DNA of 64,000 nucleotides. It comes from an uncultured Verrucomicrobiae bacterium. GTDB lineage: Bacteria > Verrucomicrobiota > Verrucomicrobiia > Chthoniobacterales > UBA10450. A model generated the notes under the pieces. The model was not told the origin of the DNA. It ran no database searches and saw only the letters and a program-made list of their open reading frames with translations. Both the position numbers and the translations under genes were made by a program. The stretch covers positions 128,001 through 192,000 of the forward strand of contig CAWIBO010000005.1 of the NCBI GenBank assembly GCA_963834385.1, in the 5' to 3' direction. Position 1 is the stretch's first letter, and each line of letters begins with the position of its first letter. This document shows positions 11,282-34,593 of this stretch, piece after piece.

Positions 11282-11340
11282 CTCCCGGGTAGGGTGGGCG
11301 TCCCGCCCGCCGGTCCGGGCGTCTCGCCCGGACGCACTTT
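11282..11340 (+). repeat. GTAG-type REP-like double hairpin (intergenic copy)
   Basis: CTCCCGGGTAGGGTGGGCGTCCCGCCCGCCGGTCCGGGCGTCTCGCCCGGACGCACTTT. It is 52/59 identical to the reverse complement of 32128..32186 inside thrS. Confidence 0.9.
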
Positions 11341-30997: not shown

Positions 30998-31018
30998 GGC
31001 GGAATGTATACGCAAATC

Positions 31019-31050
31019 GTCCGCAGATTGCGCAGATTTACACAGATTAA
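31019..31050 (+). repeat. CAGATT triplet repeat (9-10 nt period)
   Basis: GTCCGCAGATTGCGCAGATTTACACAGATTAA, 29/32 identical to the reverse complement of 51468..51499. Confidence 0.85.
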
Positions 31051-31082
31051 AGCAGCCTGAATCCGCGGAGTTCTTGCCCAGG

Positions 31083-33083
31083 CTACGACCGGCGCTGCTT
31101 GATTGCCGCCAGAATCTCCGCGACCACTTCATCGCGCGGCCGGGCCCCGAGGTTGCCCTGGCCGTGCACGCGCACGCTGACGGCGCCGGCCTCGAGGTCG
31201 CGCGCGCCGAGCACGAGCATGGTGTGGACTTTCATCTGCTCGGCGCTGGAGATCTTGGCCTTGATATGATCGTTGCTCGCGTCGAGCTCGCAGCGGACCT
31301 GGGCCGAGCGGAGTTCCGCCTGAAGGGCGCGCGCATACTCCAGGAGCGGCGCCTCGTCCCCGATGGGCAGGATGCGGACCTGTTCCGGGGCGAGCCAGAG
31401 CGGGAAATTGCCGGCGTAATGCTCGATGAGGAAGCCAATGAAGCGCTCGTGCGTGCCGAGCGGCGCCCGGTGGATGCAGAGCGGATGTTTCTCCGTGTTA
31501 TCGCGGTCCTTGTAGACCAGCCCAAAGCGGGGCGGCACCGCGAAATCGACCTGGTTGGTCGCAATGGAAAACTCGCGCCCGATCGCGCTCCAGACCTGCA
31601 CATCGATCTTGGGGCCGTAAAAGGCGGCTTCGTTCGGGACCTCCACGTAGTTGATCCCGCTGCGCTGGAGAACGCCGCGCACCATTTCCTCCGTCCGGAG
31701 CCAGAGAGGCGAGTTGTCGACAAACTTCTGGCCGAGCCGGGCCGGGTCGTGCGTGGAGAAGCGCATGACGTATTTCTCGATCCCGAAGATCTTGAAGTAG
31801 TCGAGGTAGAGCTGGTTGACCGCGTTGAACTCGGCCTCGAACTGCTCTTCGGTGCAGTAGATGTGAGCGTCGTTCATCTGCATGGAGCGAACGCGCATCA
31901 GGCCGAAGAGTTCGCCTGATTGTTCGTAGCGGTAGCAGGTGCCGTATTCGGCAAAGCGCAGCGGGAGGTCGCGATAACTGTGCGGCACCGCAGCGAAAAG
32001 CTTGTGATGATGCGGGCAGTTCATCGCCTTCAGGTAATAACGGTCTCCGAGGGGCGCGGCCGTCTCGGCTGCGCGGCGGGCGGGCGTATCGCCTGCCGGC
32101 TCTGTCGTGGCCGCATTTGGGCTCGCCAAAGTTCGTTCCGGCGAGACGCCGGAACCGGCGGGCAGGATGCCCACCCTACCCGGGAGATTGCCTGCGTGCT
32201 CGTGCAGTTCCATCGGCGGGAACATTGACTCAGCGTAGTAGGGAAGATGGCCGCTGAGTTTGTACATGCTTTCCCGGGCGAGGTGCGGGGTTCGGACGCG
32301 CTGGTATCCGGCGGCGAACTCGGTTTCGCGGGCGAGCTTTTCCAGCTCATCAATAATGGCGGCGCCGCGCGGCAGCCAGAGAGGGAGCCCGGGGCCGACG
32401 TCGTCGTCAAAGGTGAAAAGCTGGAGTTCGCGGCCGAGTTTGCGGTGGTCCCGCTTTTTCGCCTCCTCCAGCATCGCGAAGTATTCCTCGAGCTGGGTCT
32501 TGTTCTTGAAGGCCGTGCCGTAGATGCGCTGCAACTGCGGGTTCTTCTCGTCGCCCTTGTAGTAGGCGCTCGCGACATGGGTCAGCCGGAAGGCGCCGAT
32601 GTTCCCGGTGCGCATGACGTGCGGCCCGGCACAGAGATCGAGAAAATCGCCGTTACGGAAGAGCGAGATCTCCTCGTCCGCGGGAATGTGCTCCACGATA
32701 TCGAGCTTGAACTTCGAGGGCGCAGGCCGGGCGCCGAGCGCGGCCAGCTCGCCCCGTTGGGCCAGCGCGAGCGCTTCCTCCCGCGAAACCACGCTGCGTT
32801 CAAAGCGATGGTTCGCCTTGATCTCCTTTTTCATTTCCGCCTCGATCTTCTCGAAATCTTCGGGGGAGATCCGGTGCGGCAGTTCGAGGTCGTAATAAAA
32901 CCCATTCTCGACCGGCGGGCCGGCGGCGAACTGCGCTTCCGGCCAGAGACGCAGGATGGCCGTGGCCAGCACGTGGGCGCAGGAATGGCGGATCCGCTCC
33001 AGGTCGGTCATGGGCGGTCCCTCGTGCGCACCGCCTTTCGCGGCGGCCGCGGGATCCTCGGCGGCGCTCTTCTCGTCGTTCAT
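31083..33083 (-). CDS. thrS: Threonine--tRNA ligase (lacks N-terminal TGS domain; ~50-aa insertion)
   Basis: RHSCAH, DLCAGPH, LQRIYG, RDHRKLG, KAMNCPHH, GLMRVR, AAFYGPKID, IHRAPLGTHERF, FPLWLAPEQ. Confidence 0.98.
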   Translation of the reverse strand: MNDEKSAAEDPAAAAKGGAHEGPPMTDLERIRHSCAHVLATAILRLWPEAQFAAGPPVENGFYYDLELPHRISPEDFEKIEAEMKKEIKANHRFERSVVSREEALALAQRGELAALGARPAPSKFKLDIVEHIPADEEISLFRNGDFLDLCAGPHVMRTGNIGAFRLTHVASAYYKGDEKNPQLQRIYGTAFKNKTQLEEYFAMLEEAKKRDHRKLGRELQLFTFDDDVGPGLPLWLPRGAAIIDELEKLARETEFAAGYQRVRTPHLARESMYKLSGHLPYYAESMFPPMELHEHAGNLPGRVGILPAGSGVSPERTLASPNAATTEPAGDTPARRAAETAAPLGDRYYLKAMNCPHHHKLFAAVPHSYRDLPLRFAEYGTCYRYEQSGELFGLMRVRSMQMNDAHIYCTEEQFEAEFNAVNQLYLDYFKIFGIEKYVMRFSTHDPARLGQKFVDNSPLWLRTEEMVRGVLQRSGINYVEVPNEAAFYGPKIDVQVWSAIGREFSIATNQVDFAVPPRFGLVYKDRDNTEKHPLCIHRAPLGTHERFIGFLIEHYAGNFPLWLAPEQVRILPIGDEAPLLEYARALQAELRSAQVRCELDASNDHIKAKISSAEQMKVHTMLVLGARDLEAGAVSVRVHGQGNLGARPRDEVVAEILAAIKQRRS
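32050..32186 (-). repeat. REP-doublet-derived in-frame insertion within thrS
   Basis: 32128..32186 matches the intergenic element 11282..11340. Positions 32050..32100 look like a degenerate inverted partner (GCAGGCGATACGCCCGC..GCAGCCGAGACGGCCGCGCCCC on the minus strand). Confidence 0.85.
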
Positions 33084-33147
33084 CGGTAGCGGGAGATTGC
33101 GCGACTTCCCCGCCCGTGACAAGGGGCGGCGCAACCGAAGCGCTTCC

Positions 33148-34593
33148 TTACTCGCCGCTCGGAAGCGAGCCGTGGGCTTCCTGCATGATGCGGCGCGGCC
33201 CCTTCTCCCGTCTCTCTTTCGGCAGCGGCTCGGTCATGGGCCGGATCCAATCGGCATGGCCCAGGGTCCGCGGCTGGGCCGCGAGATCGACGATCGGATC
33301 GACCAGCAGTTCCGGTTTGCGCCCGTTCAGCGACGCATAGACGCGCGCCTCCACCCGGAGCGGCTTGCGCCCGTAATACGGAATCTCCCGCGCGAGAAAG
33401 TGCGCGAACTGGAGAATCATGTCGGGCCGCGTCAGCGCCTTGGTGGCCTGGTGCCAGGCGAGGTACTGCCGGGGATTGGCCCTGGCTTCGCGACCGGTGT
33501 TCGGGTCGACCACGTAAAAGCGGGCCTGCGCCTCGCGATCGTGCAATTTCATCCGCCAGGAAAAGCGGTGACCCTCGTAGGTCCAGCCGACATCGCCCGG
33601 ATACAGATAATGGCGCAGAGGGACAAGGAGCTGCACCAGGGCGTAGAGACCCGCGAGGGCGAGGACGGTGTTCTGCCAGGCCCGGCCACTGGCCGGGACG
33701 GACGGCGCCGGCGTGGGAAAAGGCCGGCGGGTGAGGAAACGCAGGACTTTGCGGGGCCAGTCAGGCGCGAGAAAGAGAGTGGTCGCGGCCGCACCCAGCC
33801 ACGGAAAAATCCCGATGTGAAACATGTGGGCGTTCAGGATGTGGAACAGAATGGCCAGGACGAAGGCGAAGAGGCGCGTCCGGCGCCAAAGGAGCAGGGG
33901 GACGATGGCGAGGTCGAGCAGCAGGCCGCCGTAGCTCAGGAAGTAGGGCATCCACTCGGTGTTGACGTAGGGGCCAATGATGGGCACCTGCGTTTCGTCG
34001 GACACCCAGTTGCGCATCGGTTCGCCCGCGAGCCAGTCGGGATTGATCTTGGCCACCCCGCCGTAAAAATAGACGACACCGAGCTGGAGACGAAGAATCC
34101 AGAGCGGCCAGACCGGCACGGTGGCGGCGCGGGGAGCGAGCCGGAGGAAAGGATCGAGAGCCCAGGCGCGGTTGGCCGGGAGAAAGACCAGCAAAAAGCT
34201 GAGCAGGCAGATCAGGTACATGTGGTTGAGGTAGATCGCCTGCTCGAGCAGAAAGGTGTAGGTGATCCCCACGAAGAAGAGGGCCGCGGCCACGCGGTAG
34301 AAAAGGCCGAGGGTGATGAGCGCGGCGAGCGCCCCGAGGACATACCAATGATAGATCAGGCCGTCGCCCGGCCACGGCTGGACCCATTCGAAGCCGTAGT
34401 ATTTGAAGAGAAACTTCGGCTGCATCCAGAAGAGTTGAACCCAGCCTTTGCTGAGGTAACGGTAGACCTCGACCACCATGAGGACGCCGAAGGCCGCGCG
34501 AAAAAAGACGAGGGAAGAGGCGTCGACCGGCCGGAAAGCGGCGGTCCGGAGACGGGCGGCGAAGGAATTGCTGGGCGCGGCTCTTTTTGTCAC
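33148..34593 (-). CDS. HTTM-domain protein, vitamin K-dependent gamma-carboxylase homolog
   Basis: L.FFR..FG, FKYYGFEWV.P, GLFYR, YLNHMYL, YFYGGVAKINPDWL.GEP, IGIFPW, WTYEGHRFSWRMKL, SLNGR. Confidence 0.9.
   Translation of the reverse strand: MTKRAAPSNSFAARLRTAAFRPVDASSLVFFRAAFGVLMVVEVYRYLSKGWVQLFWMQPKFLFKYYGFEWVQPWPGDGLIYHWYVLGALAALITLGLFYRVAAALFFVGITYTFLLEQAIYLNHMYLICLLSFLLVFLPANRAWALDPFLRLAPRAATVPVWPLWILRLQLGVVYFYGGVAKINPDWLAGEPMRNWVSDETQVPIIGPYVNTEWMPYFLSYGGLLLDLAIVPLLLWRRTRLFAFVLAILFHILNAHMFHIGIFPWLGAAATTLFLAPDWPRKVLRFLTRRPFPTPAPSVPASGRAWQNTVLALAGLYALVQLLVPLRHYLYPGDVGWTYEGHRFSWRMKLHDREAQARFYVVDPNTGREARANPRQYLAWHQATKALTRPDMILQFAHFLAREIPYYGRKPLRVEARVYASLNGRKPELLVDPIVDLAAQPRTLGHADWIRPMTEPLPKERREKGPRRIMQEAHGSLPSGE

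Follow-up and report, generated by a model that had tools for sequence, protein, structure and literature searches.

How an essential enzyme comes to hold about 50 extra residues next to its active site is the question raised by thrS, the threonyl-tRNA synthetase (ThrRS) gene of an uncultured Verrucomicrobiae bacterium (Chthoniobacterales; UBA10450). The gene lies in a stretch of 64,000 nucleotides of contig CAWIBO010000005.1, the whole of which is referred to here as the window. The explanation favoured here, with a probability of roughly 0.7, is that a hybrid of REP hairpins occupies a hypervariable loop of ThrRS without breaking the frame, where it is likely translated and nearly neutral, and that it was likely placed there by a RAYT transposase embedded in host genes. 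The elements of the locus are the following.

31083..33083, minus strand: thrS, threonyl-tRNA synthetase of 666 aa, an intact open reading frame with its ATG at 33083.
32040..32219, minus strand: variable loop, residues 289-348 (PPMEL...LGDR), in frame, delimited by alignment to solved structures.
32128..32186, minus strand: family A REP arm with its GTAG tag at 32176-32179, recognised by its match to a free copy and by folding.
32099..32127, minus strand: spacer between the family A and family B arms, outside both family matches.
32051..32098, plus strand: family B repeat arm, inverted with respect to the A arm, with two hairpins and copies in relatives.
11282..11340, plus strand: free family A copy, not in frame in a gene, a few bases past the end of a long open reading frame.

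The window protein matches the ThrRS profile TIGR00418 with 590 bits (cut-off 384). Between ...SMF and YYLKAMNCPHH, it holds a stop-free loop of 60 aa (180 nt), 27 of which are Ala, Pro or Gly, whereas the homologous loop comprises 10 aa in S. aureus (1nyq) and 8 aa in 6vu9, as counted on alignments, and 9 aa at two Bacteroidota loci. The roughly 50 additional residues reported by the first-pass annotation are therefore real, and they stand, as it also stated, immediately ahead of Cys356. This cysteine, His407 and His538, the zinc ligands by analogy with the E. coli enzyme, are all present in the window ThrRS; in an alignment of 44 ThrRS, C356 and H407 are invariant and H538 almost so. The statement that this loop spans only a few residues in typical ThrRS holds for other phyla (8-10 aa), but not for this family, where it ranges from 17 to 223 residues. 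Other features of the gene include the lack of an N-terminal TGS domain (no Pfam match in window 32800-33083, and the alignment to the S. aureus protein begins at its residue 70) and 12 additional residues in the editing domain, which are kept across relatives. Directly upstream, on the same strand, lies an HTTM/vitamin K-dependent carboxylase-like gene (window 33148-34593). No tRNA genes were found within the window.

The family A arm in thrS reads LPGRVGILPAGSGVSPERT and folds into an outer hairpin of 8 bp and an inner hairpin of 9 bp, each with a 3-nt loop. GTAG occupies positions 8-11 of the arm, directly ahead of the outer stem, and 27 of the 29 bases of its outer part agree with the majority in this genome. 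The identity of the reverse complement of 32128-32186 to the free copy at 11282-11340, given earlier as 52 of 59 bases, was reproduced exactly, while offsets of 1-5 bases give 15-25. Both copies fold into an identical double hairpin, and six of their seven differences are compensatory, forming three pairs, of which one belongs to the outer stem and two to the inner one, which argues that the repeat is conserved as a structure. The compensation had thus been correctly recognised, although only four changes had been counted and the outer-stem pair had been missed. The long open reading frame that precedes the free copy probably encodes a molybdopterin oxidoreductase, judging from its motifs.

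The other arm, PAGDTPARRAAETAAP on the coding strand, had been taken for a degenerate inverted partner of the first. It is instead the arm of a second family, with a GGAG-type tag (GGGG in thrS), and 43 of its 48 bases are identical to the best family B copies fetched from relatives. Its origin as a decayed family A arm was rejected, given that its alignment to the first arm is equalled by 55 of 500 shuffles; the alignment of this second half to a repeat that lies in frame in thiC is reached by none of 500. A REPIN consists of two arms of one repeat in one long hairpin, whereas the thrS arms come from two families; same-family REP pairs do occur elsewhere in this genome. The thrS insert is, then, a hybrid pair of hairpins from two repeat families.

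Family A amounts to 26 matches at 16 sites in this genome, with covarying stems; searching for its pattern returned 22 matches, and the reversed control 0. Eight of the sites are intergenic or at a gene end, and the other eight lie in frame inside genes: four in uvrA, all dimers, two in alaS (one dimer and one RAYT cassette), one in dnaE2, also a dimer, and one in thrS (gene names other than thrS and RAYT come from sequence motifs, not from family scans). The flanks of the in-frame sites share strand and frame on both sides, and coding copies avoid the one frame in which the GTAG creates a stop. The proposal that a multi-copy GTAG REP family invades coding sequence, essential genes included, is borne out by this genome-wide count. 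Family A shows the properties of the GTAG REPs, namely GTAG before a palindrome, the corresponding stem and loop sizes, many dispersed copies, frequently paired as inverted dimers, and a RAYT flanked by them, the arm being classed by its tag and stem rather than by a GTAG-1 to GTAG-24 consensus. For these repeats, stems of 5-13 bp and loops of 2-20 nt are listed in Table 1 of PMC3733652. The family B pattern occurs in 17 of 151 genomes and in none with the reversed control; two or more of the inspected matches are chance occurrences in a coding motif. In relatives, family B flanks another RAYT, in frame in a carB-like host. As this genome holds only two family B sites against sixteen of family A, family B would be the older resident and family A the current invader. 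Several other repeat families outnumber family A in this genome (16-mers, up to 53 counts), among them another GTAG hairpin, a GGAG hairpin and short tandem units. In an rpiB-like gene (G000:C1:79017-79074, L040), the stop codon comes from the GTAG of a family A copy, and uvrA (G000:C2:783349-789651, L034) is of double length, its four in-frame family A dimers standing separately.

The comparison with relatives, drawn from Chthoniobacterales and other Verrucomicrobiota, contradicts the idea that the REP created a new loop, which was already enlarged and has been repeatedly refilled across the family. The loop was read in 29 of 36 same-family genomes, where it is short in 5 (17-20 aa), repeat-derived in 6 (31-45 aa), a RAYT cassette in 2 and a helical piece of 73-99 aa in 16, two of these last genomes being unpublished (G002 and G007). 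It is in frame and stop-free at 118 of 122 loci, a set in which the window is included and two or more loci are duplicates. Of eight loci read separately, seven have an open loop and one apparently ends at its contig end. The four broken loops all belong to assemblies of 4-10 contigs, three of them with further breaks in thrS, and are tentatively read as consensus errors. To judge from these sequences, the ThrRS loop is a family-wide hot spot with fast turnover, whose fillings are short, repeat-derived, helical and unrelated to one another, or complete REP-RAYT-REP units. The insert was rejected as a conserved protein feature since the loops of near relatives differ; what is conserved is the hairpins, as DNA. 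Tandem or inverted repeats with units of 7 and 8 bases make up the loops of L005, L007, L009 and L019. The ThrRS of L136-L144, from other families of the order, have at the homologous site a loop of 33 residues that is conserved and contains a Cys-x-Cys motif, a fixed insertion where that of this family is variable.

Among 120 listed ThrRS homologues, a list biased towards loops like the query, 22 carry a RAYT in the loop, and most of these loops open with PPMEL..(S/P)GRVG(V/I).PAGSG..PERT, as that of the window does. Of the four nearest ThrRS cores (88% identity), two (P0006 and P0012) hold A-RAYT-A cassettes, the third an A remnant and the fourth a B-like dimer. Compared with these alleles, the window allele is of A type on its left side and of B type on its right, the ThrRS tree near the window being weakly resolved (support 0.72 and 0.0).

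A RAYT flanked by the thrS repeat, which the first-pass annotation had proposed to look for, exists in this genome, in frame in alaS, and also in six relatives.

G000:C3:124947-125534 (L032:1292-1879): A arm-RAYT-A arm cassette in alaS, in frame, NF047646 80.7 bits.

Against a cut-off of 80, NF047646 scores 80.7 (alaS), 82.0 and 80.1 bits for embedded RAYTs, with one at 79.6 just under it. The alaS gene of this genome also holds a separate A dimer, 500 bases upstream of the cassette. Three Y1 matches are present in this genome: the A-flanked alaS domain, a domain in frame in leuS and one free-standing protein. The leuS domain (G000:C2:733300-734200, L043) is a second, longer type of RAYT that lies between GGAG-tagged hairpins; the stop that follows it is possibly an assembly error.

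A RAYT match is found in 92 of 151 family genomes, and 114 of 131 matches (E<=1e-30) fall within open frames of at least 400 aa; the remaining 17 lie in shorter frames, of which three were inspected and are free-standing, so that fusion is not obligatory in the wider RAYT clade. The hosts read are thrS, alaS, recG, metH and priA. Embedded alleles have no stop codon of their own, and both HUH histidines are kept in all 50 embedded RAYTs and the catalytic tyrosine in 49. Among 378 pairs, only 7 were unsaturated, most of them copies embedded in recG and alaS, and these gave dN/dS values of 0.13-0.27. In a tree of 53 RAYT domains, the A-flanked ones form a single clade (98/99) that spans thrS and alaS. 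Arm type requires 2 changes on this tree and host gene 9, and a single clade of thrS RAYTs is rejected (p-AU 3e-5). The RAYT tree follows the repeat type rather than the host gene, which indicates repeated entry of the unit into the ThrRS loop and movement between genes.

At least 10 family A matches occur in 7 of 150 family genomes, and 6 of these 7 (one of them, G168, unpublished) encode a RAYT between A arms within the reading frame of alaS or thrS. The exception, G126, has 13 family A matches, yet other arms flank its two close RAYT matches. In G069, with an A-flanked RAYT in thrS, the only family A matches are the two flanking ones. This genome is 89.6% complete, so a free A-type RAYT may be absent from the assembly.

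The mechanism proposed for the favoured reading starts from a RAYT, an HUH tyrosine transposase, that is encoded in frame in housekeeping genes and likely made as part of the host protein. It would cut and join single-stranded REP DNA in the way of TnpA-REP, thereby spreading the A arms, and the hairpin is likely to have spread from a transposase inside housekeeping proteins. Insertions would survive only where the frame is kept and the site is a tolerant loop, and the ThrRS loop would then be refilled repeatedly. The window allele most likely began as a B dimer whose left half was later exchanged for an A arm. This could have happened through direct insertion of the A arm, or an allele of the A-RAYT-A kind could have recombined with one that held a B dimer; families A and B have their inner hairpin in common, which may offer the crossover point for the latter. 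The data favour neither route. From its composition and the length tolerance of the site, the insert is likely a flexible, nearly neutral surface loop.

The strongest competitor of this reading, although improbable, is that the ThrRS loop is selected for variety, for instance to evade a ThrRS-binding phage protein, toxin or inhibitor, or as an extra tRNA-contacting arm, with alleles swapped via the conserved flanks and the REP hybrid as one filler among many. The helical loops speak for it: 122 of them form 42 clusters (alignment score 60), and none of 30 scanned against Pfam gave a match above cut-off, while the best ESM Atlas score for one such loop (0.88) is a lead at most. Turnover is also fast. 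Loops are non-homologous in 74 of 92 ThrRS pairs at 92-94% core identity, 31 of 86 at 94-96%, 6 of 80 at 96-98% and 1 of 75 above (a pair at 98.5%), the pairs not being independent of one another. In addition, the same 77-aa loop occurs on separate ThrRS subclades (L046, L050, L008), and a further helical type is likewise scattered (L010, L026, L051, L067, L068, L084), suggesting an exchange of loop alleles. On the other hand, short loops of 15-22 aa are frequent (33 of 122 loci), the window insert is conserved as DNA hairpins and not as protein, the same repeats also fill loops of uvrA, dnaE2, alaS and thiC, and no antagonist of ThrRS emerges from the present data. The REP mechanism nevertheless leaves the helical alleles (16 of the 29 genomes read) unexplained, which keeps selection for variety alive. 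The G+C content of the helical loops averages 4 points below that of their flanks.

Much less probable is the loss of the insert once thrS has been transcribed or translated (as a small intron, by ribosome bypass or by protein splicing), which would leave the working enzyme with the short loop. The insert is rich in hairpins, and its RNA fold gives a weak signal (z -1.79, with 14 of 200 shuffles equally good). Nonetheless, 118 of 122 dissimilar loops keep the frame without stops, which removal at the RNA level would not require, and no self-splicing intron or other Rfam RNA was matched by covariance models at E<=0.1 across 31000-33300. Inteins begin with Cys or Ser, end with His-Asn followed by Cys, Ser or Thr, and hold a HINT domain; such ends are absent from the loop sequence, and the ThrRS has no HINT-type Pfam domain. 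Embedded RAYT alleles, lacking their own stop and with conserved residues, also speak against removal. Joints that skip 32036-32210 in two sequencing runs (X1 and X2) were considered as excision and rejected, their sides being 23-24 letters with 20 other letters between them; they are read as short-loop thrS of other organisms. No RNA run was among the sequencing runs listed, whose shares were small (best, 0.17).

An assembly error in which a repeat copy was wrongly joined into thrS is hardly credible: frame breaks or early stops do affect alaS, uvrA, thiC and leuS in this assembly, but the thrS arm keeps the frame and its differences from the free copy are paired, relatives have an A arm at the homologous place in thrS, and a 151-nt contig from a soil run, perhaps not independent of the source sample, equals 32174-32324 with zero differences and spans the upstream edge of the insert.

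Several known systems resemble the arrangement described above. Inteins and in-frame homing endonucleases are nuclease-bearing elements that recur at one site of an essential, conserved gene, where related genomes hold the full element, a reduced one or none. The ThrRS loop shares with them a nuclease-bearing element at a recurrent site of an essential gene and the three kinds of allele. However, splicing ends are absent here, an HUH transposase takes the place of the homing endonuclease, and the insert would remain in the protein.

Rickettsia palindromic elements (RPEs), which the first-pass annotation had cited as precedent, are palindromes of similar size (about 105-146 bp) that lie in frame in working genes, according to the portions available of PMC3733652 and PMC3184786. 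In-frame palindromes are thus known, as had been said, and the thrS insert, a GTAG/GGAG double-hairpin hybrid of two families with a cognate transposase in the genome, behaves like an RPE. Its closest precedent, however, is the intragenic GTAG REPs of the verrucomicrobium Opitutus terrae. As far as the accessible part of that work goes (Di Nocera et al. 2013, PMC3733652), GTAG REPs are mostly extragenic, with intragenic copies allowed for; in-frame copies and dimers are most numerous in O. terrae (70 rows in supplement 3), and hybrid dimers of two GTAG REP families have already been reported. Both systems share a GTAG that precedes a short stem-loop, the occurrence of copies and dimers in frame, and uvrA and dnaE2 as targets, and the published intragenic copies also target tRNA synthetases, in other species. 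Since in-frame REPs in Verrucomicrobia, and in tRNA synthetases, have been published (PMC3733652, in its accessible part), the single thrS insert taken alone is an ordinary in-frame REP. Supplement 3, as available, has no threonyl row and no 'GRVG' peptide, and the accessible text of PMC3733652 reports neither a host-gene-fused RAYT nor a site refilled by different elements. Based on the sequences compared, the unusual part would thus be the fused RAYT together with the swap-site loop, neither of which the first-pass annotation had noticed, as a variant within REP/RAYT biology.

The RAYT itself resembles the REPtron, a RAYT or TnpA-REP between inverted REPs, in its HUH and tyrosine residues, its NF047646 match, its inverted arms, the co-evolution of enzyme and REP, and the single A-type copy in this genome. 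The substrate that TnpA-REP processes is its cognate REP in single-stranded form, according to the portion of PMC8266576 available. However, RAYTs are described as free-standing and mostly vertically inherited, and 'do not appear to transpose as a unit' (PMC6006769 and PMC5581495, in their accessible parts), whereas most copies found here form a domain inside a host protein and the unit has passed from one host gene to another. A few long RAYT proteins were dropped in PMC6006769 as fusions or annotation errors, as its available text states, and that of PMC5581495 does not mention fusions. No description of a RAYT fused inside host genes or of a swappable ThrRS loop was found among the open-access papers searched; the supplements of PMC6006769 and PMC5581495 may list RAYT fusions.

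The accessible parts of PMC5581495 and PMC6006769 leave open what keeps RAYT genes in genomes and whether a REP-RAYT unit can move as a whole. Comparable sites that hold the whole unit, a reduced form or nothing would make it possible to trace the movement and upkeep of such a unit, and a transposase within an essential enzyme would be produced at every translation of its host. Likewise, a ThrRS that accommodates 15 to 273 foreign residues beside its active site would be a natural source of new domains. A more far-reaching joint reading is tentative, with odds somewhat against it. It holds that, in Chthoniobacterales and other Verrucomicrobiota, REP-RAYT-REP units might be mobile elements whose niche is the reading frames of housekeeping genes. 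The transposase would work as an internal domain of AlaRS, ThrRS, RecG or CarB, never splicing out, and the unit would move as a whole between a few tolerant loops, seed REP dimers and, by cutting, drive wholesale loop exchange, including the capture of unrelated helical pieces; the window insert would then be the scar of two families meeting.
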